IMG/VR virus record: IMGVR_UViG_3300000558_000068
Span: 1-64,000 of that record
DNA: 64,000 nucleotides
Origin: an uncultured virus (IMG/VR IMGVR_UViG_3300000558_000068)
Lineage: Duplodnaviria; Heunggongvirae; Uroviricota; Caudoviricetes
Reading direction: 5' to 3' (one strand)
Shown piece after piece: positions 558 through 62,017 of the stretch. The stretch's first letter is position 1. The number at the start of each line of letters is the position of its first letter. The translations under genes were made by a program, and so were the position numbers. The notes below the pieces were generated by a model. The model saw nothing but the letters and a program-made list of their open reading frames with translations, searched no databases and was not told where the DNA came from.

Positions 558-1376
558 TTGTTAAATATGAATGAGAAGTACAAGTCAACTTTAGGAAAGT
601 TCGAAAATTTTCTTAAAGTTCAAAATTATTCAACGAACACTATTAATTGTTATTTGTCTTATCTGAAATTATTTTTAGATAAGAATAATAATCTGTCGCC
701 CGGACATTTAACTCAAAAGAACCTAGAAGATTTTATTTACGGGTATAAATTTACGTCAATATCACAACAAAATCAAATTTATAATAGTTTAAAGTTGTTT
801 TATAAAAATATTTTGAAAAGCAACTTAACTAAAATAAATCTAGAAAGACCAAGAAAAGAGAAACATTTACCACAGATAATCGATAAGGAATTTTTAGTTG
901 ATCAAATAAACAAGATACAAAATTTAAAGCATAAAGCCATTATATCGTTGGGATATTCTGTGGGTCTTCGTGTGTCTGAAGTAATTAATCTTAAAATTAA
1001 TGATATTGATTCTAAACGAATGGTGATTTCTATTAAGAATGGGAAAGGAAGAAAGGATAGAATTGTTCCTCTATCCCAAAATGTATTAGAGCTGTTAAGG
1101 AAATATTGGTTGGAATATCGGCCTAAGGAATATTTGTTTAATGGGCAAAATTCGTTACAATATTCTTCAACGTCTTGTAATAGTATTGTAAAACATTATT
1201 TGGGGAAGGATTATCATTTTCATTTGCTAAGGCATTCATGTTTCACTCATTTAATCGAATCCGGAGTGGACAGTAGATTAATCCAGAAATTAGCGGGACA
1301 CTCAAATATTAAAACCACCGAAGGTTATATGCAAGTTTCTACAAACGTTTTAAACAACATTAAGTTACCTTTATGA
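558..1376 (+). CDS. Tyrosine recombinase/integrase (XerD-like, N-terminal SAM-like domain)
   Basis: Catalytic motifs GLRVSE, GKGRKDR, HLLRHS, LAGH, TEGY; start may be ATG 567. Confidence 0.92.
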   Translation: MLNMNEKYKSTLGKFENFLKVQNYSTNTINCYLSYLKLFLDKNNNLSPGHLTQKNLEDFIYGYKFTSISQQNQIYNSLKLFYKNILKSNLTKINLERPRKEKHLPQIIDKEFLVDQINKIQNLKHKAIISLGYSVGLRVSEVINLKINDIDSKRMVISIKNGKGRKDRIVPLSQNVLELLRKYWLEYRPKEYLFNGQNSLQYSSTSCNSIVKHYLGKDYHFHLLRHSCFTHLIESGVDSRLIQKLAGHSNIKTTEGYMQVSTNVLNNIKLPL

Positions 1377-10364: not shown

Positions 10365-11415
10365 ATGAGAGAAATGATTCATCAGATATTGAAAGAAAGT
10401 ACCGAAGAAAAATCAAATCCATTATATAAAGATAAAAAAGTTACAGTTAAGCCGGCAGGTAATAAAGGTAATGGATTATTTGCTGCTGTCGATATTAAAA
10501 AAGGCGATACGATATTATTAGCCAAAGTAAAAATAATGTCAGATAAAGACTGGCAATCAATTAAAGATACCGAACCAGTTAAACTATATGGATTCAGATG
10601 GATGGACGAACATGGTATCCTTCTCGGTAAATGGAAATTCAACTTTAAGGATGTTCAGGAAAAATTGTTATGGAAAAAAACAGACTTCTATAAAGAACAT
10701 TGTGAAGATGCATTAAGATTATCCGGATTCCTATATGTAAACGATATTGATAAAGATACCGATGCTAATGTTGAGGAAATTATTAATGTTGATGATAAAA
10801 TTGTGGGGATAAAAGCAATCCGGGATATTAAAGCTGGTGAAGAACTAATCAAAGAATATAACTACGACTGGCGCGAAGAATTTAAATCGTGGCGTGAAGG
10901 TATAACAGAAGGACTAAATATACCAAAGGCACAATATCAATATGGAGATCCAATACAAATTGTTGGCGCCAGTCGAAATAAACCGTGGAAATTCGGACAT
11001 TATATTGATAGAGATTCAGCTGTTGTTTGGTATCGTGACGAGCTATCTGCAGGATCCCAGCCAATGAACCTAAAATATATTAAAAAAAGAATCATTAACG
11101 AAGGTTTAAATTTACCTAANCAAGNNCGATCNNNACACCCCGGAAGGCTGGTTTAAAGATATATTAAACAATTTAACTGAGTATAGATCCCCAAACAGGC
11201 CACTTAACATCTTTTATAAATTGGATAATGAAATTGTAATGGAAATGGAATTCGCTGACCAGGATCAAAATTCTGGCTATTTATGGGTCAGTTACACCAA
11301 AATATGGTCAGTTTTTGAAACTAGATTTAACATGGAATACCAACAAATACAAGGCTTGATCAAAGCTATGGTGGAGGAGACCTATAATTTAAGGGGAGTA
11401 ACACCCTATAAATAA
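10365..11415 (+). CDS. Modular SET-domain protein; probably one gene through 11415, apparent frameshift lies in N-containing bases 11120-11134
   Basis: SET motifs KGNGLFA..DIKKG and AIRDIKAGEEL..Y; two EGLN(I/L)PK linkers; frame after the Ns reads TPEGWFKDILNNL, matching DTPEDWFKNLLTDL that follows the same linker in ORF 56777. Confidence 0.7.
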
Positions 11416-11603
11416 ATCTGCGCTTCGTTGATACAGGTGGAGGAGACCTATAATTTAAGGGGAGTAACACCTCAGTTTCAAATACAGAACTGGGGCCCCA
11501 TGGTGGAGGAGACCTATAATTTAAGGGGAGTAACACCATTATTGTTACATCATCAATTTGCTCGTAAGGTGGAGGAGACCTACAATTTAAGGGGAGTGAC
11601 GAC
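11370..11603 (+). CRISPR. Orphan CRISPR-like mini-array, 4 repeats / 3 spacers, type VI-B-like geometry
   Basis: GGTGGAGGAGACCTATAATTTAAGGGGAGTAACACC at 11370, 11436, 11502 (identical) and 11568 (4 mismatches); unique 30-bp spacers 11406-35, 11472-501, 11538-67; GGTG/CACC terminal pairing; no cas gene recognised; strand is inferred. Confidence 0.85.
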
Positions 11604-12697
11604 TAAATAATCTTAATATCTTTCGTTAATGCAAATTTTGTTCCTTTATCGGGGATTGAAATGTGTCCGGTATCTGTAACGCTTAAATTAACCCCAAGCT
11701 CGTGATTTTTATATTCTGAAACTGTACCAGTGATACCATGTTTATGTTGTTTTAGCCATTTTTCCAAACTAGCCAAATATTGGAATAATAGTTCTCCATA
11801 TGGTATGCTGTAAGCAGTATCGCGATTATTGGGATATGTAAACAAATTGATTTTTTCCCCGACAACATCAACCCTTGTTTTTATATTGTTTATTTTAATT
11901 GGTGTTGTATCAGCATATGGGTCGTATTTGGATTTGTATATGTGTTTAATAAAGTTGGATCCATCATCTGGCTTATTATCAACAAAATATTCGACACCAA
12001 TTTTAGGATCCGGTTCTATTGTAACTTTAATAAATGATTCTTTTTCGTTATATGTTGGTACTTTATCATTTCGGTATTTAAGAAACATTCCTGATCTAAG
12101 AACGATATATTCATTAGGTTTTGTGTTATCTGTTTCTATTTTTTTGATTAATATTTGGCTTGATCCTCTTCCTTCTATTGATATGTCGTTTGTTGTCGGG
12201 TATAATTGTTTGACATCATTGCTTGTCCCTTGAAAGTCAATTATGGGGTCAATATCACTAAAATTGCCATAACTATCAAGATTACGTTTACCGACAGAAC
12301 CCATTGAATTGTTTGCGTTAATGAGCGATGGGATAATCGGCCCAATATAATCGTAACATAAATCATTTTGAGCAATGTCATAAGTAATAACTTTAACCAT
12401 ATCATTAACTGTGGGGAAGATATTATATAATCTCGGTAAAAATGGGTTAGCTATTTTTAGTGTGTCTTTTTCTGGTAATTTGAAAATAATACGCCCGGTT
12501 CCTTTATCTATTGTGCGTTTTGTTGTTAATCCGCTAACTGTATCATTTTTACCTTCAGTTTCGATTAGTTGCTTACGATAAACTTCCCATGACGGATCGC
12601 CTTCAATTGCTAATACCTGACAAACAAAAATAGAACGAGTACTTAGTGCGCTAGTTAAATCAGGATTGTATGATGTATTTTTTAAATTAAGTAACAT
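11603..12697 (-). CDS. Baseplate hub/spike-like (gp5/gpV-like) protein
   Basis: OB-fold-like PFLPR..IFPTVNDMVKV, IEGRGSSQI, C-terminal GELL...HKH metal-apex-like motif. Confidence 0.5.
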   Translation of the reverse strand: MLLNLKNTSYNPDLTSALSTRSIFVCQVLAIEGDPSWEVYRKQLIETEGKNDTVSGLTTKRTIDKGTGRIIFKLPEKDTLKIANPFLPRLYNIFPTVNDMVKVITYDIAQNDLCYDYIGPIIPSLINANNSMGSVGKRNLDSYGNFSDIDPIIDFQGTSNDVKQLYPTTNDISIEGRGSSQILIKKIETDNTKPNEYIVLRSGMFLKYRNDKVPTYNEKESFIKVTIEPDPKIGVEYFVDNKPDDGSNFIKHIYKSKYDPYADTTPIKINNIKTRVDVVGEKINLFTYPNNRDTAYSIPYGELLFQYLASLEKWLKQHKHGITGTVSEYKNHELGVNLSVTDTGHISIPDKGTKFALTKDIKII

Positions 12698-37759: not shown

Positions 37760-40117
37760 TTAGTTAATAATTGATTTGTAGAATTCTGCACGATCTCTTG
37801 TTACTTTTTCGAGATTATATTTTGGTGTTATATCCTCATGTAATTTTTCAGCCATATCGGTCACAAATGAAGGATTGTCGATTAATAGTTTTAGGTATTT
37901 AAACCACAACTTATGATTTTTAATACTTGGGACTAATAAAGCATTTCCATCTTTAGTAAAATGCCCGTCTACGTAAGCGTTTTTAAGATCAATTGTATAG
38001 GGGCCGAAATCCTGTGCAATTAATGCTTTTTTATGAAACGCGGCCTCCACGCATTTTAGTTGGGAATTGTGATTAATAATACCGTTGGCATTATACATAT
38101 GTACACTATCAACTTCAATATCATATACTGTATTAATAGTGTTTTCGATTGTCTTTATACTATCAGTGAATGTTTGTGGGATAAAATGATTACTTCTTTT
38201 ACCGCTTATCATTTTGTATAAATGATCACATTTGTGTTGTGAAATAAAACCAATTTCATTGTAAAATATTTCGCAACCTTCTCTATGTAAATCAAGCCGA
38301 TAATAATATTTTCGATAGTGTTTATTGTATGAATATCTGATAAAACCTTGTATTCCAAAACCCAATAACAAAGTTTGTATTTGTTTAATCAATTTCAAAT
38401 CTTTACTGGTTAAACTAACTGGGCTATGCTCGCCAACAGTTCCATCCGATTCAAATAATCCGCGTAAAAACTCTCTAATTACACTTTTAGGAGACTCTAA
38501 TATTACTTTTGGGACCCTAAATGTTTTACCATGACTTCCACACCAGCCATATTTTTTAGCAATTGATAAAAAATTAATACAAGTTGAACAAATACTAACT
38601 CCAAATCCTTCTTTAGCTAAACTATTTGAACATCTCTTATCTGGTTTTTTGTCACGCACTAATGGATTTAATCCAATCGATTTGTAAAGGCTTACAATAT
38701 CTTCAACAACATTAGTATGTCGTTTATCACACGTAATTGATATGCTATTACCGTTATAATTTCCATCGCCTAACATATATCCTAACAATCTTCCCCAGTT
38801 TTCATTTATTCGAATTCTAGGTAACATATTTTCGTCCGAATTATTAATTTTTTCCTGAGTTATATTTTTAGTTAATAACATTGGATATGTAATTTCCTGA
38901 TATTCGGTTTGCGAAAATATTGGGCGGGTAAGTTTAATTTTATCCCCAATTTTTAAATCTTGTAATTGTACCCATTCATTGTTAATAAAAATTTGATGGT
39001 GAGGAGTCCCTTCAATTTCATATCCATCGTTCATTGTAATTTTAATTGTTGGAACGTTTTCATATTTAAAGTGGTTTACTATTTCATTAAATTTCCCATC
39101 TATTTCAGTTTGTAAAGATAATTTTTGGTCAACAATGTCGCTTATGTGTTTAAATCCCTTATTGGTTGATATTAATGAGTCACCAACAATACATTTTACT
39201 AGATTAAACGTATGCTCTTTTAACGGAGCTAATGAAATGTCAAATAAATTATAGTTCTTAGCATATGTTGTAACAGGTTTTGTCCAAATTCTACGATAAG
39301 GTTGTCCTTCGTCAGCGTAAGGTTCTTTTGAGTATTCCTGAAGATGTTTTATGTAATCCTGATCAGATATTATTTTATAGTTATCAGTAAAAATTCGTTC
39401 ATATTTAACCCATATTGTTTCGTGAGGTTGAATTTTACGTTTCTTTCTTTCTTTTGTCTTTGGATTAAATTCGGTTATTTCCCCACGAATGTCAAAACCA
39501 CAAACAACAAATTGAGTTTTTTTATCATAACCAACAGCGTGAAGTTGATTAATTGCTCCGCTAATTATTTCTAAATCAGCGAGATGAGAACTCCCACCGA
39601 GGAACCCCACACGAACTCTATCTGTTTGTTTTGGTAAGTTTTCAGGTATAAATTGTCTTTCAGTTGGATCAATAGCATTTGGAATAACAACAACATTTTT
39701 ATTAAACTTAGAAATTTCACCAGCAAATATTGGCGTGGTTGTCATTACATAATCCGGTAAAGATAAATTACCTGATATTTTTTTATCTAAACCCTCACCT
39801 ACGATTAATTGATATGCCGGATGATCCATTGTTGGTTTCCAGTAATCATCAATATCCATGATTGTTTTAACGCCCAATTTACGAAGTTGTCCCATGCGCC
39901 GTTCCATCTGTTCATAAGGACCAAATGTACGGTGAAAATGTATTATTTGGTATTTCTTTAAAAAATCTTCATTATCAATATTGGGTTTATAATCAATGTC
40001 AATATGGAAATCATCAGGAAACAATTGTTCTAGCTTAATATGCGGACCAACACTGCGAAAATTTGCTACTCCAGTTCTATCGCTGCAGATTACTAATACG
40101 TTAATTTTACCACTCAT
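37760..40117 (-). CDS. GT-B/GT4-like glycosyltransferase containing an intein
   Basis: MDIDDYW, VIPNAID, GGSSH..DL, DISLAPL...FN..K|S.LK..EA. Confidence 0.85.
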   Translation of the reverse strand: MSGKINVLVICSDRTGVANFRSVGPHIKLEQLFPDDFHIDIDYKPNIDNEDFLKKYQIIHFHRTFGPYEQMERRMGQLRKLGVKTIMDIDDYWKPTMDHPAYQLIVGEGLDKKISGNLSLPDYVMTTTPIFAGEISKFNKNVVVIPNAIDPTERQFIPENLPKQTDRVRVGFLGGSSHLADLEIISGAINQLHAVGYDKKTQFVVCGFDIRGEITEFNPKTKERKKRKIQPHETIWVKYERIFTDNYKIISDQDYIKHLQEYSKEPYADEGQPYRRIWTKPVTTYAKNYNLFDISLAPLKEHTFNLVKCIVGDSLISTNKGFKHISDIVDQKLSLQTEIDGKFNEIVNHFKYENVPTIKITMNDGYEIEGTPHHQIFINNEWVQLQDLKIGDKIKLTRPIFSQTEYQEITYPMLLTKNITQEKINNSDENMLPRIRINENWGRLLGYMLGDGNYNGNSISITCDKRHTNVVEDIVSLYKSIGLNPLVRDKKPDKRCSNSLAKEGFGVSICSTCINFLSIAKKYGWCGSHGKTFRVPKVILESPKSVIREFLRGLFESDGTVGEHSPVSLTSKDLKLIKQIQTLLLGFGIQGFIRYSYNKHYRKYYYRLDLHREGCEIFYNEIGFISQHKCDHLYKMISGKRSNHFIPQTFTDSIKTIENTINTVYDIEVDSVHMYNANGIINHNSQLKCVEAAFHKKALIAQDFGPYTIDLKNAYVDGHFTKDGNALLVPSIKNHKLWFKYLKLLIDNPSFVTDMAEKLHEDITPKYNLEKVTRDRAEFYKSIIN
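38066..39193 (-). mobile_element. Intein with LAGLIDADG homing endonuclease (376 aa)
   Basis: Starts CIVGDS; block B GTPHH; LLGYMLGDG and FLRGLFESDG; VYDIEV...HN followed by Ser+1. Confidence 0.93.
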
Positions 40118-40301: not shown

Positions 40302-41183
40302 TTACAACCCTTCTGATAAAATTTCTCTAATCAGTTCTTTTACGATTGGTTTTAGTTGGGCTTTAATTTTTTCTCGTTTGCTTGCTGCTGTGGGAACACT
40401 GGTTTCTTCGACAATTTTTTTCTTAGGAACAGCAATAACATTTTGGGATGCTGATGTTGGTACTGTTGAATTACTTTTTATTAATTTTTGTTTACGAAAT
40501 TGTTCAGTGATTGCGTCTAATTTACCCCCACTTAATGCTGAGCTAAGTTTTGGTGGTGTTAATGGGTTTTTCAGGAATGATTGTTTAATAACGTCCGGTA
40601 ATTTAGAACCTTTGATCATACGTTCATTTATTGCTGCTGTCATATCGGGCATTGAACTTGATTTACCTTCTGCCTGTGATGCTTTTAATAGTTCAGATGT
40701 TAATGATGGCGCTTTTCTTACATCATATTCGTCTTCTTCTTGAACACCATCTTTAGCGTAATATATATAATTTTCATCTTCGTATAACGGTTTTTTGTTT
40801 TTTGGTTTTGCAATAACTTGTTGCGTTTTTGGCGCTAATGCTGGTTTCTGTATTGATCTAGGAATTTGTTTAATTGATTGAGGTGCGGGAGTTTCGTCTT
40901 CGTCATTATCGTGAATGGCTTCGCGTAGAGATTTTAAAGATTTTGTGCCTATTTTTTCCACTTCTTCTGTTGCAGTTGTTAATTTTCCGGATCTTTTAAC
41001 TCCTGTTTTTGCGTATGGGTATAATTCTTCAGACGCCTCCATTACTTGTTTTGCGTAAGATAATTTTTCCATTAGGTTTCCAATTGGTCCGCCGAATCCA
41101 ACATCTAGACTATCGCCTTCTCTTGGCAGTGCTTCAACGATTGGTCTTCCAGCTGCGTCAACAAATTGCATTACTTTGCTCAT
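40302..41183 (-). CDS. Hypothetical protein
   Basis: 293-aa ORF; SKLPD.IK.S; ends LIREILSEGL. Confidence 0.65.
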   Translation of the reverse strand: MSKVMQFVDAAGRPIVEALPREGDSLDVGFGGPIGNLMEKLSYAKQVMEASEELYPYAKTGVKRSGKLTTATEEVEKIGTKSLKSLREAIHDNDEDETPAPQSIKQIPRSIQKPALAPKTQQVIAKPKNKKPLYEDENYIYYAKDGVQEEDEYDVRKAPSLTSELLKASQAEGKSSSMPDMTAAINERMIKGSKLPDVIKQSFLKNPLTPPKLSSALSGGKLDAITEQFRKQKLIKSNSTVPTSASQNVIAVPKKKIVEETSVPTAASKREKIKAQLKPIVKELIREILSEGL

Positions 41184-41722
41184 AAAATAATTCCTTCCAT
41201 ATCATATTCTTCTGAAAATATGTTTTTTATTTTTTTCTTTAATTTTGTCCAAATGTTATCTTTCCCTGTTCCAGTTCCCGGACGATCTTCTGTTCCGCCC
41301 TCAGGGGTAATTGCGTAATAAATTCTACCTTTTTCCCCTGTCATATGTTTATCGTTGGGGTTATATTTTTCGTGAGTGGATTTACCGGTTTCATCGTAGG
41401 GTTTAAATTTATCTTTTCTTTCTTGCCAATTATTCATTCTATCGACTCTAAATAGACGCCAGCCGGGTACAACAGATGTATCTTCTTCACCGGTCTTAGA
41501 TGTTCCACGTATTAACCAACCACGAAGTACATCATTTCCGGATTTGTAATGTCTGCCGTACACATATGGCTCGACTTCACGATAACCGGGCTTAACTTCT
41601 AATGGATCATCGGGGTCGTCATACCAAAAATTCACAATCTTTCTATTTTCGAGTGATTTTAGTATGAGATCTCGATTTACCGTTTCTAAGATAAGCTCTT
41701 GGGCCAAATTGTAAAGTTTCAT
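41180..41722 (-). CDS. WYL-domain-like protein
   Basis: REVEPYVYG, VLRGW, WRLFRVDRM. Confidence 0.75.
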   Translation of the reverse strand: MKLYNLAQELILETVNRDLILKSLENRKIVNFWYDDPDDPLEVKPGYREVEPYVYGRHYKSGNDVLRGWLIRGTSKTGEEDTSVVPGWRLFRVDRMNNWQERKDKFKPYDETGKSTHEKYNPNDKHMTGEKGRIYYAITPEGGTEDRPGTGTGKDNIWTKLKKKIKNIFSEEYDMEGIIL

Positions 41723-48736: not shown

Positions 48737-50386
48737 TTAATCTTGATATGGATTATTTGGTAAACATTGACAGCAAATTAATCTTTGTAGTCTAAAACGG
48801 CTCAATAAATCACAGAAATTGTCTATTATCTCATAGTTTTCCAATGGTTTATCGTAAATCTTTAAAATTGAATATCCACCACACCACGTTCCAGCAAAAT
48901 ATCTTTCCATTAATAGTTGATAATCTTGGCTGTCGTGTTCTCCAGCAAAATATCTTTCCATTAATAGTTGATAATCTTGGCTGTCGTGTTCAATTCCATA
49001 ATTCCACCCATTAAACGTAACGCTTTCCATTAATCCTTGTGTTCCACCACCCCAGCTAATATTAAATGGTACACCTTGTTGTTTTTCTCTATGGGTATCT
49101 AATTGTCTTGGTATTATTTCTTCAAAATCATCAACGACAAAATGTTTTTTTCCATTAACATAAAAAATTAATTTTCCTTTACGCCAATCAACTTCTTCTT
49201 GATATTTTAATAGTTTTAAATACGTTGTTGTATCGTTATAGTTTATATCATTAATTCCGCCTTTATTAACTAAATCACACCCTTCTAACGTCAAATCTCT
49301 AACAAATTTAACAACCACATGAGCCCAAGTTTGAGCTGAGCAAGTTCCGGTTATTGATATCGGATTATCTGACATTTGTTCTTCCATCATAGCAAAAGCC
49401 TCCATATGAGTCCCGCCTGAAGATGTTCCGTATATGTCATTAGTACAAATACCGGTAAACGCCATTTTTCGATATCCAATTTTATTTGTCGTACAATCCA
49501 ATCTAAAAGCCAATACATTATTAACAATATCAAAATTTGGGTCTTTTGTTGCTGCTAGGGATATTTCACTTGGGGTTGATGGATTACACTCATTTGGTAT
49601 AAATTCGTTCCAATACATAAAGCTATTGGTTGGTGGTAGAGTTGTCGCTGATTCGGGCTCTAATGGTATTTCGGATGATGTCGTAACCCCCGATTCACCA
49701 CTAAAGTAATTCCAATATTTATTCTCAGCTCTTGTCCCAATTAAAAAGAATATATCCTTATTTTGTGGATAAATTTCATTAAGAGTTTGTGTGTCAGGGG
49801 AAGAACAAGTATTACAATCACAACAACCAACCTTTAATAAGAACTCCATTGTCCATCCCTTTGTCATACGAGTTGGCATTAATTCAAACGGATAATCATA
49901 TAATTTCCAAAATCCTTGTAAAAATCCACCTTCACCTTTAAAATAATTTCCGCTATAATCAGACGCACACGAAATATCATACTTAATTGGCTTATATCCC
50001 GATCCATGATCAAATGCCCAATTACCATCAACCATTTTTAATATTAAGGTTTCATTACCAAAAAACGAAATGCTTATACCGCTTAATTGATCAACGTATT
50101 GAGTGTCCATTTCAGTTAAACCAATATCATTAATTGTGAACGCTGAAGCTGGTGCGTTTGCCCATCTAATAAGCGAATTAACTTCTAATCCAATATTTCC
50201 ATAATTAAGTGTGCTTCCGGTATTAATATCATACCACACAATTGGATCAGTACGATGTGATAATCTACGTAAAATGTAATCATCTTCACCCACTTGAAAA
50301 TCCCAATTGTGCGAATAGTCTAATGTCGAACGAAGCCCTAGTTTACCAGACCAAAATTTATTGATGTTTTGTCCCACGATAAACAT
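48737..50386 (-). CDS. Probable virion protein with LamG/concanavalin-like features
   Basis: WTMEF, WAHVVV, LIFYVNG, LKIYDKPL..EI..N. Confidence 0.55.
   Translation of the reverse strand: MFIVGQNINKFWSGKLGLRSTLDYSHNWDFQVGEDDYILRRLSHRTDPIVWYDINTGSTLNYGNIGLEVNSLIRWANAPASAFTINDIGLTEMDTQYVDQLSGISISFFGNETLILKMVDGNWAFDHGSGYKPIKYDISCASDYSGNYFKGEGGFLQGFWKLYDYPFELMPTRMTKGWTMEFLLKVGCCDCNTCSSPDTQTLNEIYPQNKDIFFLIGTRAENKYWNYFSGESGVTTSSEIPLEPESATTLPPTNSFMYWNEFIPNECNPSTPSEISLAATKDPNFDIVNNVLAFRLDCTTNKIGYRKMAFTGICTNDIYGTSSGGTHMEAFAMMEEQMSDNPISITGTCSAQTWAHVVVKFVRDLTLEGCDLVNKGGINDINYNDTTTYLKLLKYQEEVDWRKGKLIFYVNGKKHFVVDDFEEIIPRQLDTHREKQQGVPFNISWGGGTQGLMESVTFNGWNYGIEHDSQDYQLLMERYFAGEHDSQDYQLLMERYFAGTWCGGYSILKIYDKPLENYEIIDNFCDLLSRFRLQRLICCQCLPNNPYQD
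48890..48991. repeat. Perfect 51-bp tandem duplication (EHDSQDYQLLMERYFAG x2)
   Basis: 48890-48940 identical to 48941-48991. Confidence 0.9.
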
Positions 50387-55806: not shown

Positions 55807-56790
55807 ATGGTCATTCTTGGATATAAAAATTTAATAAGAAAAGTATTGCTCGAGTATCACGGAAACCAAACAGATATTGATGAAATTGAAACTATAATAA
55901 CGAACGACATTGTTGATANCACAACNNANACGANNATATCGGTAATAGTTAATCAGGGAAGAAGTGTTATAATTAGTGAAATTGAAGTTGATGACATTCA
56001 GAGACAAAACAATACACAAATCCAAAAAATAAAAACTGAAGTCAGCATCACAATTACAGATCAAACACAAGCCACAGGTCAATTTAACCCAAAAACTATC
56101 ACATTAATTGACAATGATATGTATTCTATTGAGTTGTCCGTTGTTGTTAATCTAAACCCACAAGACATTGATAATTTAAAGAAGGAAATTGGTAAGGTGA
56201 TATCTCATGAGCTACATCACGCTTTTAGAGAAATAAAATTGATAGGTAAACAATCCAGATCAAAAATATATAATCTGGCCCAAAACTTATCGAAACTAGG
56301 ATTTAAGGATTTATATAATGATTACCCGGAACTAAAAGATTTTATGGTAATGTTCTATCTGGCACTACCACAAGAAATCACGGCAAGAGTACAAGAAACG
56401 ACATCAATATTAAAAAACATCGAATCAACAAACTATAATGACGTTACTAATCAATTATTGCGTTACCAGCCGCTTATTGACGCTAAAAAAATGATAAAAT
56501 ATGATATGAACGAAATAAAAAATGTCGACAACGATAAGCTCAATAATTTTATTACCGAATTTAATAAAAATATCAAATACTACGGTGATAAAGAAAATAT
56601 TGACATAAAAACTAAAAATACGGTCGATTCATTCGTTTATTATTGGGGTAGCAAAATTAGTAGGGGTGGAATGGAATTGTTTAGAAAAATATCAACGTTG
56701 GCATCTGATAAATGCTGGAATGATAAATCTCCTGAAAACCGAATTAAACATGATTTACTAGCACAATTGATGGGGGATGATTATGATTAA
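55807..56790 (+). CDS. HExxH zincin-like paralog B
   Basis: LLEYHG, SHELHHAF, EITARVQE; Ns near 55919-55935. Confidence 0.7.
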   Translation: MVILGYKNLIRKVLLEYHGNQTDIDEIETIITNDIVDXTXXTXISVIVNQGRSVIISEIEVDDIQRQNNTQIQKIKTEVSITITDQTQATGQFNPKTITLIDNDMYSIELSVVVNLNPQDIDNLKKEIGKVISHELHHAFREIKLIGKQSRSKIYNLAQNLSKLGFKDLYNDYPELKDFMVMFYLALPQEITARVQETTSILKNIESTNYNDVTNQLLRYQPLIDAKKMIKYDMNEIKNVDNDKLNNFITEFNKNIKYYGDKENIDIKTKNTVDSFVYYWGSKISRGGMELFRKISTLASDKCWNDKSPENRIKHDLLAQLMGDDYD

Positions 56791-57436
56791 GCTACTAAAT
56801 TTATTGATAGAAGAAATAACTGATTGGGAATTTGGTTATGAAAGACCGTTCAGGTTCGATTTAAACAGCACTGTCAATGAGGGACGTTTTCGCCTGTATC
56901 ATCCGGACGACCTAGATTCATATTTCAGAACAAAAACACATCCATGGACAAAAGAAGTCATTGAAGGGGTATCGTATGTAATGGGGAAACGAAAAGATAA
57001 TAGAAAACTAACAATTCAAGCAATACGTTTTAATAAAGGATACTGGAATGAAGATCAAGCAAAGAACTGGTTTAACGATAACAAAAAGAACTTCAGATTT
57101 AATATTGGACAAATTGATGAAGGGCTAAATCTACCAAAAAAGAAACTTGATACCCCAGAAGACTGGTTTAAAAACTTGTTAACTGATCTAGAAATAAATA
57201 AACAATTTGATGATATTTTTTTTTTCAATATTAGTGACCACGATAGGGAATATATGGCGTATTTTGTTAGTGAAAAAGAATTATTGGTTAGTAACATCAA
57301 AATTTGGTCAGTATTACGTAAAAAATATCAATTGAGCACAAAAGAAATTCGGCAATTAGTGAAAAACAAAATAGAAGGTGAGTTTGGTATTGATATTGAT
57401 AGTGTTTTTTGTGGCATTGGAAGTTATCGTCGATAG
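56777..57436 (+). CDS. Two-module protein with EGLNLPK linker
   Basis: C-terminal module resembles the module preceding the CRISPR-like array (TPE.WFK..L..L, L.VS..KIWSV). Confidence 0.7.
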   Translation: MIMIKLLNLLIEEITDWEFGYERPFRFDLNSTVNEGRFRLYHPDDLDSYFRTKTHPWTKEVIEGVSYVMGKRKDNRKLTIQAIRFNKGYWNEDQAKNWFNDNKKNFRFNIGQIDEGLNLPKKKLDTPEDWFKNLLTDLEINKQFDDIFFFNISDHDREYMAYFVSEKELLVSNIKIWSVLRKKYQLSTKEIRQLVKNKIEGEFGIDIDSVFCGIGSYRR

Positions 57437-58553: not shown

Positions 58554-61454
58554 TTATTTTTTTAATTTCTGAATAACACTTTTAAATATATCATCGTCTA
58601 AATTTGAATCCCCCATTACTTGATCAATAACTTTAATTTTCTTCATAAGTGCGTGATATAGATGGAGATCCAGAGTTTCTGATACTATGTTATAATACAC
58701 GTTTACCACCTTTTTAGTTCCAATACGATAACACCTATCTTGTGCTTGAAGATGATCTGCCGGCAACCAAGATAAATCATTAAAGACAACCAATTCGGCC
58801 GCTGTTAATGTAATACCAACACCTGCAGATATAATATTACCAATAAATACCTTAACATTGGGATCGTTTTGGAATCGTTCGATAGATTCCTCACGATTAT
58901 TTTTTGACATTGGCCCGTGGTGTATAACTGACATTTTACCGAAATGATTGTGTAATTGTAATAGAGGCTCAGTGAAATTGGTAAAGATAACAACCTTTTT
59001 ACCTTCTTCTATTGCGTTTTCAACGATTTCAATGGTAAATTCAACTTTAGATAGAGCTAAAAATTGACGTAATTTAACTAATTGTGACAAATGAAGAGCG
59101 AGATTTACAGTTTTTTGATGATCAGCCCATGTTTGATATTCCCCAACAATTTTTTGGTATTCTTCCTTACATTGTAATGGGAGATAAATGGGCTGTACAA
59201 TCTTTTCTGGTAGATCTAATATATCTTCTTTTCTTCGTCTTAAAATAACATCTTGGGTACAATTATGCAATTCTTCTAAATTACTAGCACCTTTGGTATC
59301 CCATATTTTCCTCCCACCCCTACCATAAAATTGTTTACCAGCACAATACCGGATAACATAGCCCATCCAACTACGGGCCAGACGATGTTTACATAAGGCT
59401 AATAAATTATACAAATCAATTGGCCGATTAGTAACTGGCGTCCCAGTCAATAACCATACACGTTTAATGTTTTTGGATAAATCATTAAATATTTTAGCGC
59501 GCTGGCTTTGTTGGTTTTTTGTATAGTGGCAATTACTAACCAAAATGTTATTAGCAAAATAATTATGATTGTCGTTTATTTCGAGATTATAAACTGTTGT
59601 ATTTTTTGAGCCACCAGATTTGGGTCTTGATCTACTTCTTTGTTCCAAAACCTCAACACTTTCCACCCTAACGCATTTAACACTTCCGTTTTGCGATGAT
59701 CCAAAAATTTCCATTTTTTCATTTTGTGGGTATTTCCATCGATTTCGATTGATATTTTTAATTCGGGATGAGCAATATCTGGCGAATAATGGAAGGGTAA
59801 AGAAGGAAACTGGTCGAAGACTTCTTTTGTTTTTATTGGAAACTCTAACATCCATCGATGATCCATCTGAAATAGTATATCGTATATTATTTTTTGTTGT
59901 TTGGTTATCTGACCGTTTCCACCACGAGATAAAAATGTTCGGCCTTTCATTTTTTCCGTCATTTTTTCTTTCACGCCCGGTTTTGACATTAGCGGATCGT
60001 TTTTTAATCGGTCTGATAATTGTTGTATTAATTCTGGCCTTTTTTGAAAAGTCAATTTGTGTGTAATTGATGACTTTTGATAAACTGTTTCGTTGTGTAT
60101 CTTTGCAAATTTCTCTGGCTGTCTCATTGTCCCTTTTGCTGAACAAGATCGACAACAAAATCGTCTTTTGTCTGACGGTTTTTTTGTAAATTCGATTCCA
60201 CATTCTTGACAAATTTGTATAATTCGTGGCCTTTTTCTTTTTAATGTGTTTGATATTCGTATATTCACTTCCTGATCTCTGGATGAGCAAAGAATCGAAC
60301 AGTGTTTGCTTTTGTTGTATTTTTGCCGCTTGGTTAATTCCTTCTGACAAACCAAACAATGTGTCGTTTGGTTTAATTTTATTTGCTTTGACATATCCTT
60401 CATTTTTAATAAATATTTTATGGTTTGGTGTGCATTCGATAATTAATCCGTTATTTGTTTTTATTTTTAATAGTCTGTTGCTTGTTTCATTTTTTATCCA
60501 TCTAATGATTTTTTTATGCTCTAATTTATTTGTTTTTAAATTATAACTTAATATTTGTACATTCAAATTATTTTCAACAATGTCACCTATTTTCATTTGC
60601 CCGAATTCGGTTGTTACTAAAGTATTATATGTAAAACACTCATCCCCAATAATTATATCAAAATTTTCATCTACTATTGTCGTAATTAATAACTGATCTT
60701 TTTTTCTTTTATCCGGAACTGTATGGAAATTTTTAAGAATATCATAATTAACTATTGTCCATTTCCCGCCCGATATCCATTCACTTCCATTAATGATATT
60801 AATTTGCCGTGTAGATTCTAACATTTCGATTTCTTTTTTCCAGTTTAATTTTAACGATGCTGGGCACACAATTAATATCTTTTCTGATTTAGACTCTATC
60901 GATGCAACAATTGATTCATAGCTTTTTCCTAACCCGCAATCGTCAGCTAATATAAACCTATCATTCTCTAATAACTTAATAATACCTTCAATTTGATATT
61001 TATATGGTTTTCTTTCATAGTTATCCCAATGGTCTTCCGAGAATTCTATTTTATTTATTGCTTTGGGTTTAATTATTGAATGTTTTGGTATCCACAAGTC
61101 CACACATTTATCATCTTCCCAAATCTTTCCCCATATATGAATAGCCTTATCTGTATTTGATAATAGTTTTTGAATGTATATCTTGGTTGGTTTCTCTACA
61201 CATAAAAATTTCTTTTGTAATTCTTCTCCACAATAACCATCAATATTGTACCACTTATTAATTCCTATTACTTTCTTATCATAATTCTTAACAACGTATT
61301 CAGATATTTTTCGCCCAAATGTAGTTTCACCATTAAGAACCCGGTTTTTTAATATAAGCAAGAAATTGTTATTACCACTATAATCTTTTAAAATGGTAAT
61401 AGCACGTTTTTCAACTGGCTGGTATTTTAGCTCGTTAATTTGACTTTCATCCAT
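58554..61454 (-). CDS. SNF2/SWI2-like helicase containing an intein (start ATG 61454)
   Basis: Q motif YQ, ADDCGLGKS, VCPASL, DE|CH, LTGTP, GVGITLTAA, QAQDRCYRIG. Confidence 0.92.
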   Translation of the reverse strand: MDESQINELKYQPVEKRAITILKDYSGNNNFLLILKNRVLNGETTFGRKISEYVVKNYDKKVIGINKWYNIDGYCGEELQKKFLCVEKPTKIYIQKLLSNTDKAIHIWGKIWEDDKCVDLWIPKHSIIKPKAINKIEFSEDHWDNYERKPYKYQIEGIIKLLENDRFILADDCGLGKSYESIVASIESKSEKILIVCPASLKLNWKKEIEMLESTRQINIINGSEWISGGKWTIVNYDILKNFHTVPDKRKKDQLLITTIVDENFDIIIGDECFTYNTLVTTEFGQMKIGDIVENNLNVQILSYNLKTNKLEHKKIIRWIKNETSNRLLKIKTNNGLIIECTPNHKIFIKNEGYVKANKIKPNDTLFGLSEGINQAAKIQQKQTLFDSLLIQRSGSEYTNIKHIKKKKATNYTNLSRMWNRIYKKTVRQKTILLSILFSKRDNETAREICKDTQRNSLSKVINYTQIDFSKKARINTTIIRPIKKRSANVKTGRERKNDGKNERPNIFISWWKRSDNQTTKNNIRYTISDGSSMDVRVSNKNKRSLRPVSFFTLPLFARYCSSRIKNINRNRWKYPQNEKMEIFGSSQNGSVKCVRVESVEVLEQRSRSRPKSGGSKNTTVYNLEINDNHNYFANNILVSNCHYTKNQQSQRAKIFNDLSKNIKRVWLLTGTPVTNRPIDLYNLLALCKHRLARSWMGYVIRYCAGKQFYGRGGRKIWDTKGASNLEELHNCTQDVILRRRKEDILDLPEKIVQPIYLPLQCKEEYQKIVGEYQTWADHQKTVNLALHLSQLVKLRQFLALSKVEFTIEIVENAIEEGKKVVIFTNFTEPLLQLHNHFGKMSVIHHGPMSKNNREESIERFQNDPNVKVFIGNIISAGVGITLTAAELVVFNDLSWLPADHLQAQDRCYRIGTKKVVNVYYNIVSETLDLHLYHALMKKIKVIDQVMGDSNLDDDIFKSVIQKLKK
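59532..60638 (-). mobile_element. Intein (369 aa) in the helicase Walker B (DE^CH)
   Basis: CFTYNT start, block B CTPNH, VYNLEI..NHNYFAN.ILVSN end, Cys+1. Confidence 0.92.
59576..60403 (-). CDS. Zinc-finger + DUF559/Vsr-like endonuclease nested in the +1 frame of the intein
   Basis: CLVC..CSILC, CQEC..CCRSC; PDIA...IEIDG..H...D..K...L..LGWKVLRFWN. Confidence 0.85.
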   Translation of the reverse strand: MKDMSKQIKLNQTTHCLVCQKELTKRQKYNKSKHCSILCSSRDQEVNIRISNTLKRKRPRIIQICQECGIEFTKKPSDKRRFCCRSCSAKGTMRQPEKFAKIHNETVYQKSSITHKLTFQKRPELIQQLSDRLKNDPLMSKPGVKEKMTEKMKGRTFLSRGGNGQITKQQKIIYDILFQMDHRWMLEFPIKTKEVFDQFPSLPFHYSPDIAHPELKISIEIDGNTHKMKKWKFLDHRKTEVLNALGWKVLRFWNKEVDQDPNLVAQKIQQFIISK

Positions 61455-61498
61455 ACAAAATAAATATAATTGACGGATATTTATTGTAAAGATTAAAA

Positions 61499-62017
61499 AT
61501 GAGTCAAAACATTGTGCCAATAAACAGAAATTCGAAATTCTACGGACTAAATGACATGCAAACAGAGATAAACATGGGTAGGGAATATATCGAGGGTGAC
61601 ATAGATTTTCGTGTTGTCTTATACCGGGTTGATCATGAAAAAACAAACACGGACGATTTATATGGTGAAGTTGAAGCCTATCAAATAAAATATAAATCAC
61701 CAATAGAATTAAGTTGCTCAGTATCGTTAAAACCAAAACAAAATAAACAATATGGGACTAACGCATCACTAATTAGAGAAGAATGGGGTAATCTTGAATT
61801 TAACGTGTATGAAGAACAATTAAAAGAACTTGATATTGAGATTAATAAAGGAGACTACGTTGGATATCCTGTCCGCGAGAATTTTTTTAAGTATTTTAGC
61901 GTGGTTGATAATGATAAGGTTAATGATGACACAACCAGATTATTGGGATTGAAAAAAGGGTTCTATCGTCATATCGTGTGTACACCAACAGATAACAGCG
62001 AATTTATGGTTAATTAA
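61499..62017 (+). CDS. Head closure/neck protein, T4 gp14-like
   Basis: VVLYRVD...DDLYGE; LKELDIEINKGDYV; structural context. Confidence 0.6.
   Translation: MSQNIVPINRNSKFYGLNDMQTEINMGREYIEGDIDFRVVLYRVDHEKTNTDDLYGEVEAYQIKYKSPIELSCSVSLKPKQNKQYGTNASLIREEWGNLEFNVYEEQLKELDIEINKGDYVGYPVRENFFKYFSVVDNDKVNDDTTRLLGLKKGFYRHIVCTPTDNSEFMVN

Follow-up and report, generated by a model that had tools for sequence, protein, structure and literature searches.

A phage gene family whose coding 3' end forms the first repeat of a CRISPR-like array with type VI-B-like geometry

A short repeat-spacer array in a tailed phage genome

The window (the whole stretch of 64,000 nucleotides analysed here) belongs to an IMG/VR virus record of 75,017 bases with a GC content of 31.7% and an estimated completeness of 23%. 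The record is a fragment of a large tailed phage, and the window encodes a tail sheath, a tail tube, a baseplate protein, a family-B DNA polymerase, two intein-bearing genes, and a large sugar-modification cluster; a Por_Secre_tail match is also present, weak and below cut-off (E 0.017). At 11370-11603 we find an array of three identical 36-bp repeats and one degenerate copy, with three mutually unrelated spacers of 30, 30, and 30 bp between them (Table 1). A preliminary description had proposed this layout from the letters of the sequence, and it was borne out by a repeat finder (4 copies at 11368/11434/11500/11566, spacing 66, 66, 66), by TRF (11370-11597, period 66, 3.5 copies), and by dinucleotide shuffling: the window contains 3 exact copies of the 36-mer, and 0/100 shuffles contained any match to it. 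The fourth copy differs from the repeat at 4/36 positions. No further copy lies elsewhere in the 75,017-base record at ≤3 mismatches, and the exact repeat core is absent from IMG/VR.

The same holds for cas genes, which the preliminary description had not recognized in the window: a Pfam scan of 79 ORFs and a PADLOC run on 37 ORFs returned no Cas family, and a six-frame search with model NF038190 found no Cas13b in the 75 kb, or 23% of the genome, that the record covers. In this the locus agrees with virus-borne Cas-less mini-CRISPR arrays, being a short series of repeats and spacers in viral DNA that lacks cas genes. No Rfam family reaches its gathering threshold in the window, and no CRISPR-DR family is found at E≤10 on 11300-11700. 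The pairings earlier proposed for the repeat, GGTG with CACC at its ends and CCT with AGG internally, are both present in its minimum-energy fold, which at -7.2 kcal/mol (z -1.0) is not better than that of shuffled sequences.

Table 1. Coordinates of the array, its carrier gene, and neighboring or related features in the window
Feature	Position	Strand	Remarks
Carrier gene	10365..11415	+	SET domain, middle module, EGLNLPK linker, conserved ~92-aa domain (most likely one fused gene)
Conserved phage domain	11137..11415	+	Last 12 codons are repeat 1; stop codon inside spacer 1
Repeat 1	11370..11405	+	Coding, encodes VEETYNLRGVTP
Spacer 1	11406..11435	+	Reverse complement encodes YQRSADLFI, a thymidylate synthase motif
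Repeat 2	11436..11471	+	Repeat finder and exact 36-mer count
Spacer 2	11472..11501	+	No source found
Repeat 3	11502..11537	+	Repeat finder and exact 36-mer count
Spacer 3	11538..11567	+	No source found
Terminal degenerate repeat	11568..11603	+	4 changes: 3 synonymous in the gene frame, 1 P>T
Convergent 364-aa gene	11603..12697	-	Weak PHROG match only; stop codon abuts last repeat
Array-less paralogue of domain	56777..57436	+	Family HMM E 8.2e-13; divergent C-terminus, no repeat at 3' end

The first repeat is the end of a protein-coding gene

All four repeats share the reading frame of the upstream gene, and each encodes VEETYNLRGVTP, with a single P>T in the terminal copy. The gene frame translates to a product ending in QGLIKAMVEETYNLRGVTPYK and then meets a TAA at 11413-11415, which is the only stop in that frame between 11110 and 11610 and falls 2 codons into spacer 1. 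The array is thus no free-standing intergenic element; the coding 3' end of a gene from a conserved family supplies its first repeat, a point not noticed in the preliminary description.

Upstream, ORF 10365-11156 encodes a SET domain (E 1.9e-9), and in the window the frame of the carrier gene is broken by six N at 11120-11134. In a contig from source runs X1/X2, 13 letters take the place of the 15 letters of the window that include the 6 N, and this shorter reading places the SET part and the conserved domain in one frame. A homologous fusion of SET and conserved domain is found in protein P0013 (53% identity over 188 aa). The SET-domain ORF and the conserved domain are thus most likely parts of one fused gene.

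An AF2 model of the 92-residue domain (pLDDT 95.6) predicts a helix at residues 68-83 and a strand at residues 88-91, so that the repeat-encoded residues would form the end of the helix and the last strand of the domain. The domain has no Pfam, PHROG, NCBIfam, or PADLOC family and no PDB sequence match; Foldseek finds no PDB match for its fold at E≤0.001, the best VIA-align Z is 4.5, and the ESM Atlas returns viral hypothetical proteins only, below 0.9. The same phage carries two array-less paralogues of the domain, whose C termini are divergent. Synonymous constraint within the repeat is not raised overall (330/452 vs 844/1145), and single codons stand out in it (AAG 6/6, TTC 8/8, ACA 11/11). 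We found no conserved hairpin predicted between leader and repeat.

Arrays at the gene end are a trait of the family

A HMMER search with the domain identified 504 representative homologues at E≤0.001, 39 of them at E≤1e-10, with alignments extending to query residues 89-92, the end of the domain. In many homologues, the protein's own C-terminal 12-mer recurs beyond a stretch of about 10 variable residues. At the protein level, a second repeat was detected in 58 of the 150 best homologues (45 in frame at 21-23 residues and 15 frame-shifted), a lower bound because predicted proteins are cut short wherever the first spacer contains a stop.

We fetched 31 metagenome loci and examined 30 after dropping an exact duplicate (L008, of L007). 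In 24/30, the final 36 nt of the gene double as the first repeat of an array, a count that includes the same array twice in three cases (L005 and L011, L018 and L019, L020 and L021). One further locus (L006) retains a decayed second copy only, two (L015 and L030) have no array, and three (L026, L034, and L035) stop at the gene end, where the presence of an array cannot be judged. An array at the gene end is thus a trait of the family, and contig L023 carries two family genes with different repeats and one array each. The genomic contexts of the related loci vary and are phage-like, with a T4-type portal, an RNA ligase, a ClpB-like ATPase, and SegE among the neighboring genes, and locus L030 also contains a CHU_C type IX secretion domain. 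No cas gene was found in the flanks of 17 related loci. Relatives of the domain are absent from GenBank phages (tblastn), from IMG/VR (peptide patterns), and from the genomes of 185,579 species, and no homologue of the domain lies beside bacterial Cas13b or Cas9 loci.

New units enter on the side of the gene

Comparison of related loci reveals how the arrays change. The array of L013 equals that of L009 plus one gene-proximal spacer, and L032 and L033 share one common spacer behind 4 and 1 private gene-proximal spacers, respectively. Repeat-spacer units therefore enter at the gene-proximal end, a polarity that is shown in the relatives. Loci with the same repeat (L005/L012 and L017/L022/L024/L025) have wholly different spacers; invariant spacers, which had been named beforehand as an argument against a guide array, are thus not what the family displays, and together with the two spacer sources described below this check comes out in favor of a CRISPR array. 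Decay of the terminal repeats affects the 3' part and spares the 5' part, as in a Capnocytophaga Cas13b array. In run X1 of the source sample, at least 2 further spacers occur beside the window's repeat, in loose ends, and a near-identical repeat with other flanks is present in a freshwater run of another study. Summed contig depth in the source metagenome is 130-550 at the gene region vs 22 at a unique flank.

Addition on the gene side with a fixed 36/30 ruler is the behavior of Cas1-Cas2 integration, with the gene in the place of the leader. Neo-CRISPR arrays were reportedly described by Nivala et al. in 2018 as products of off-target Cas1-Cas2 integration. The arrays studied here resemble them in that a non-CRISPR sequence, the last 36 coding nucleotides of the gene, is duplicated around inserted spacers, and differ from them in being recurrent, polar, family-wide, and located in phage genomes. 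The units could accordingly be neutral or harmful scars, left as functionless insertions where a host Cas1-Cas2 (from hosts with II-C or VI-B systems) accepts the gene end. The geometry and the polarity apply equally to such scars, the arrays are short, and the same phage has paralogues with other C termini and no arrays; against this stand the presence of arrays in most family members and with many repeat subtypes, and the two separate arrays in contig L023. We judge scars to be unlikely. The persistence of the arrays, together with a likeness of the coding sequence to VI-B repeats that exceeds chance (see below), suggests instead a mimicry kept by selection.

Spacers are not under coding constraint

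The repeats of the window are in frame with the gene at a period of 22 codons, as they would be in a coding cassette array, in which a constant 12-residue motif alternates with captured 10-residue peptides and the whole is translated. Some database proteins do read through several units (e.g., P0004). The in-frame appearance of the window array follows from 30 being divisible by three, and in the window translation stops within spacer 1. We collected 47 distinct spacers from arrays with a clean 36-nt register (L010, L014, and L031 were excluded), and their lengths are 30 nt in 38 cases, 29 nt in 6, and 32 nt in 3, so that 9/47 are not divisible by three and shift the frame. Stops in the 30-nt spacers are not depleted in the gene frame (15/38, vs 15/38 and 19/38 in the other frames), and the number of units read through in the protein set decays geometrically (106, 32, 11, 1). 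Frame-shifting lengths, undepleted stops, and the decay of read-through together indicate that the spacers are not under coding constraint; neither the kept open frame nor the unit divisible by three that would mark a coding tandem repeat or cassette is found.

The terminal repeat differs from the others mostly by synonymous changes (3/4 in the window; 4 synonymous changes plus L>M and I>V in L023), which would also suit translated cassettes. This pattern is accounted for if protein selection acts on repeat 1 alone, which is then copied into new units, the terminal copy being older. Taken with the stops and the frame shifts, it leaves translated cassettes very improbable. A test of open frames by strand gave no bias, with no open frame in 1/47 spacers on the plus strand and 3/47 on the minus strand, and such spacers, with neither a strand nor a frame signal, are what functionless scars would also contain.

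Geometry and repeat sequence resemble type VI-B arrays

We ran a degenerate pattern derived from the repeat of the relative L017 on the genomes of 185,579 species. Arrays were retrieved only from Bergeyella zoohelcum, Capnocytophaga cynodegmi, and C. stomatis, plus one isolated match elsewhere, and those of the three species consist of 36-nt repeats and 30-nt spacers. In 2/3 species, Cas13b (NF038190, E about 1e-250) lies beside the array, which begins 59 nt after the gene, and Csx27 accompanies Cas13b in one of the two; the C. cynodegmi assembly yielded no Cas13b. Further repeats came from three additional Cas13b loci. Cas13b is rare in the genomes sampled, exceeding the cut-off in 2/401 of the class and 3/301 of the family. 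The preliminary description had called the 36/30 geometry typical of VI-B systems, in agreement with these Cas13b arrays of Bergeyella and Capnocytophaga.

It had also suggested that the repeat resembles Cas13b repeats, a likeness that holds to a moderate degree. The window repeat matches a repeat of the G423 Cas13b locus at 24/36 positions, ungapped and in gene orientation, a value reached by 0 of about 20,000 random window 36-mers (maximum 22; empirical p<1e-4). The L017 repeat matches that of Bergeyella at 29/36 positions (gapped), a likeness that is partly circular because the search pattern fixed 20 positions. A small VI-B covariance model was built on 7 repeats drawn from 5 loci, of which one adjoins a weak Cas13b-like gene only. 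Over 174 kb it returned 76 matches at E≤10, and almost every one of these is a repeat of the phage family. Scores are 11.2 bits (E 7.4), a marginal match, for the window repeats and 19.8 bits (E 0.02) for the best relatives. The window repeat folds in the VI-B register but weakly, pairing 4 bp at its ends and 3 bp in its interior; the test for covariation in the VI-B structure gave no significant result, and the repeat subtypes of L020, L027, and L028 do not fold at all. No similarity to true VI-B leaders was seen by eye.

VI-B systems are described as having a 36-nt repeat with GUUG/CAAC ends, spacers of about 30 nt, and self-processing to a 66-nt crRNA (10.1101/092577). The repeat and spacer lengths agree with this, and no cas13b, with or without csx27/28, adjoins the array in the 75 kb of the record. 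The window repeat ends in GGUG/CACC, not GUUG/CAAC, and its pairing is kept by a change on both sides; the relatives L017, L022, and L025 have exact GUUG/CAAC ends. By covariance model and identities, the window and L017 repeats match in the gene strand and most other subtypes in the opposite one (23-25/36 in reverse). Family repeats are nearly palindromic, and either strand may be the functional one.

The preference of the repeat model for the minus strand would fit II-C-like transcription toward the leader, and the effector could be another than Cas13b: a phage nuclease encoded in the unsequenced 77% of the genome (the sequence covers 23%), or a host II-C Cas9 that uses 36-bp repeats. Flavobacterium columnare II-C arrays are described as an exception of this kind, with 36-bp repeats that share end motifs common in VI-B (PMC8092290). 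II-C arrays in the sampled Cas13b hosts (G001 and G423) have instead 47-nt repeats and a period of 77; since these are the same hosts, the geometry points to VI-B. Arrays of the L017 pattern, moreover, occur only in the three Flavobacteriales species, known here for Cas13b. We regard another effector as improbable.

The phage arrays share with Flavobacteriales VI-B arrays the 36/30 geometry, the stem register, the 3' decay of the terminal repeat, and the lack of cas1/cas2 beside the array. They differ in lacking a neighboring cas13b or csx27/28, in starting with a repeat that codes for protein, in having a gene in the place of the leader, and in being borne by a phage.

Sources of the spacers

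Spacer 1 is identical at 24/26 nt to thyA of Bacteroides phage BF695P2, and at this match the plus strand of the window is antisense to thyA. No exact source was found for spacer 1, which has a match with ≤3 mismatches in 0/401 genomes of one class. Spacer 2 has no match in GenBank phages, and the only phage match of spacer 3, to a tail protein gene of a Bacillus phage (E=6), was taken as chance. The arrays of L027 and L023 likewise have no match in GenBank phages. Searching for the origin of the spacers, as proposed in the preliminary description, thus gave a near match to a phage gene for the window and no exact match of 24-mers of spacers 1, 2, and 3 in IMG/VR.

In the family, matches to related viruses were found for 1/47 spacers, and in the window for 0/3. 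The one case is a spacer of L012 that matches contigs of sister phages, L009 at 30/30 and L007 at 28-29/30 positions. The element it targets is present in multiple copies and has TTTG at its end, with TATATTTG about 20 nt further on. We take this arrangement to be the -33/-7 promoter form of Bacteroidota. One copy of the element lies directly upstream of the family gene in L009. This promoter form in L007/L009, the CHU_C domain in L030, the weak Por_Secre_tail match, and the Flavobacteriales repeats hint indirectly at a Bacteroidota host.

In both source cases, RNA of the gene strand would be complementary to sense transcripts, and two cases prove nothing. A promoter-element protospacer lies upstream of the transcription start and would make a poor RNA target; it suits DNA targeting better, in favor of an effector other than Cas13b, and a source that may be the phage's own kind of promoter could also be expected of scars.

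A phage-borne array probably filled and read by the host

We consider it somewhat better than an even chance that the locus is a phage-borne CRISPR-type array filled and read by host machinery of the VI-B type. The last 36 coding nucleotides of the gene would act as first repeat, with the gene itself in the leader position, and new 36+30 bp units would be inserted at this gene-proximal repeat by host Cas1-Cas2 in trans. Adaptation in trans is described for a VI-B locus lacking cas1/2, by the Cas1 of a II-C system (PMC8092290). The terminal repeat would preserve the gene end as it formerly was, while the repeat now active has evolved further under protein constraint.

The array may be transcribed as the 3' tail of the gene's mRNA. 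No terminator can stand ahead of repeat 1, which is itself part of the mRNA; this makes such transcription the simplest route, and the plus strand is probably the transcribed one. The Bacteroidota-type promoter pattern occurs in the window as often as expected (3 found vs 3.8), no terminator was detected 3' of the array, and the sequencing runs listed as containing the locus include no RNA run. The stop of the convergent gene abuts the last repeat, so transcription of that gene might run across the array on the minus strand. From the tail of the carrier-gene transcript, a Cas13b-type host effector would excise 66-nt RNAs of spacer and repeat, which might direct Cas13b against the transcripts of rival phages or keep it busy with harmless guides.

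More tentatively, and with less than even confidence, we propose a widespread phage gene family with a dual-use 3' end, in which twelve codons serve both as part of a protein fold and as a Cas13b-type repeat, and through which large phages of Bacteroidota build and renew guide libraries of their own with the integrase and the effector of the host. If true, this would amount to a protein-coding CRISPR repeat and to a family of adaptive arrays owned by phages.

Relation to known viral arrays and RNA anti-CRISPRs

Racrs are RNA anti-CRISPRs of phage origin; repeat mimics that phages express can be taken up by Cas proteins and weaken the defense. The mRNA with repeat 1 would by analogy have the layout of a leader and first repeat, as in RNA anti-CRISPRs and ecrRNA; in contrast to RNA anti-CRISPRs, full repeat-spacer units accumulate here, and inhibition is putative. 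RNA of the leader and first repeat (ecrRNA) is reported to deplete true crRNAs and to weaken Cas13b defense (PMC13187072), and phage repeat mimics or crRNA-like RNAs are described for other CRISPR types (Cracr; 10.1101/2024.10.29.618823). Our literature search found no description of a phage-borne mimic of a Cas13b repeat, and mention of one protein anti-CRISPR against Cas13b.

Virus-borne Cas-less mini-CRISPR arrays are described for Sulfolobales viruses, where they are proposed to act against rivals (PMC6858448), and Cas-less arrays for huge phages, with viral arrays proposed as guides against rival phages (PMC7162821). The present arrays are like them in being short, viral, without cas genes, and presumably served by host Cas proteins, with at least one spacer that matches sister viruses. 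Those arrays are intergenic and copy a host repeat, whereas in the present case a conserved viral gene provides the repeat with its own end, and the unit of gene and array forms a family in many phages, sometimes present twice in a genome. In the full texts searched, no family of phage arrays with a coding repeat is described. Cas-less viral arrays are known; what sets the present ones apart is a repeat within the coding sequence of a folded protein, with the unit of gene and array conserved and active across many uncultured phages.

The family may offer a natural example of a single sequence that has to satisfy the demands of a protein as well as those of a CRISPR repeat, and a candidate phage strategy against or through Cas13b. 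As a record of spacer integration into phage DNA, it could provide a route to the poorly understood adaptation of Cas13b systems in trans. For annotators, it carries a warning, as such arrays are called as ORFs in protein databases.

The carrier gene and its paralogues

In the record, six scattered N (window 11120-11134) fall exactly in the stretch that separates the conserved domain (approximately 92 aa) from the SET-domain ORF. In contigs from the source runs, which derive from the phage's own metagenome sample, this junction is 2 letters shorter, so that the SET and conserved-domain frames are fused. Variant contigs are numerous over the carrier-gene region, with a summed depth of 130-550 vs. 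22 for the flank. We find two further copies of the domain in the same phage record, neither of them with an array and both divergent at the C terminus, and all copies in the phage, together with many homologues, carry the linker motif EGLN(L/I)PK on the N-terminal side of the domain.

Features of the phage record and of related or compared loci
Feature	Location	Strand	Details
Tyrosine integrase	window 558-1376	+	Phage_integrase, E 1e-35
Sugar-nucleotide and glycosyltransferase genes, long run	window 15856-36182	-
LAGLIDADG endonuclease intein in 785-aa ORF	window 37760-40117	-
180-aa protein, weak WYL-domain match	window 41180-41722	-	PADLOC E 4e-5; Pfam E 9.5e-4 (below cut-off)
Perfect 51-bp tandem duplication	window 48890-48991		2.0 copies, 100%; inside 549-aa ORF 48737-50386 (-)
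Domain paralogue	window 56777-57436	+	HMM E 8e-13
Intein within SNF2-type helicase gene	window 58554-61736	-
Domain paralogue	G000:C1:64681-65088 (outside window)	-	HMM E 4e-20
Element of ~30 nt	L007 2379-3351; L009 1563-3701		4-5 copies per contig
IS605 OrfB/TnpB-type gene	L009 5097-5795		Pfam E 3e-18
Two family genes	L023 897-1216 and 4001-4515
20-repeat 36/30 array adjoining 1126-aa ORF	L047 (G279:C3:592798-596088)

Arrays and repeated elements in related loci

The two family genes of L023, a single phage contig, have different repeat subtypes (GTTGGAAC...CAAC and GGTGGGAG...CACC), and one of their arrays holds a single spacer, the other four. In the related contigs L007 and L009, every copy of the short repeated element is followed by a promoter-like pair, TTTG...TATATTTG, and a spacer of the sister locus L012 targets this element. 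The TnpB-type gene of L009 lies ~0.8 kb downstream of the family array. L007 and L008 proved to be one contig of 17.5 kb with an identical 5.6 kb, including gene and array, at its two ends in opposite orientations; either the assembly is at fault here or this is a terminal inverted repeat.

Cas-related candidates and other phage genes

The large ORF of locus L047 matches the Cas13b model weakly (E 1.4e-6) in its C-terminal part, and may be a divergent Cas13b-like effector. Some Cas13 systems are accompanied by WYL proteins; the WYL match in the window is too weak to rely on. Apart from its integrase, the window looks like a fragment of a large lytic-type myovirus. The long sugar-related run includes GDP-mannose dehydratase, epimerase, DegT aminotransferase, and fucosyltransferases, as well as several methyl- and acetyltransferases.
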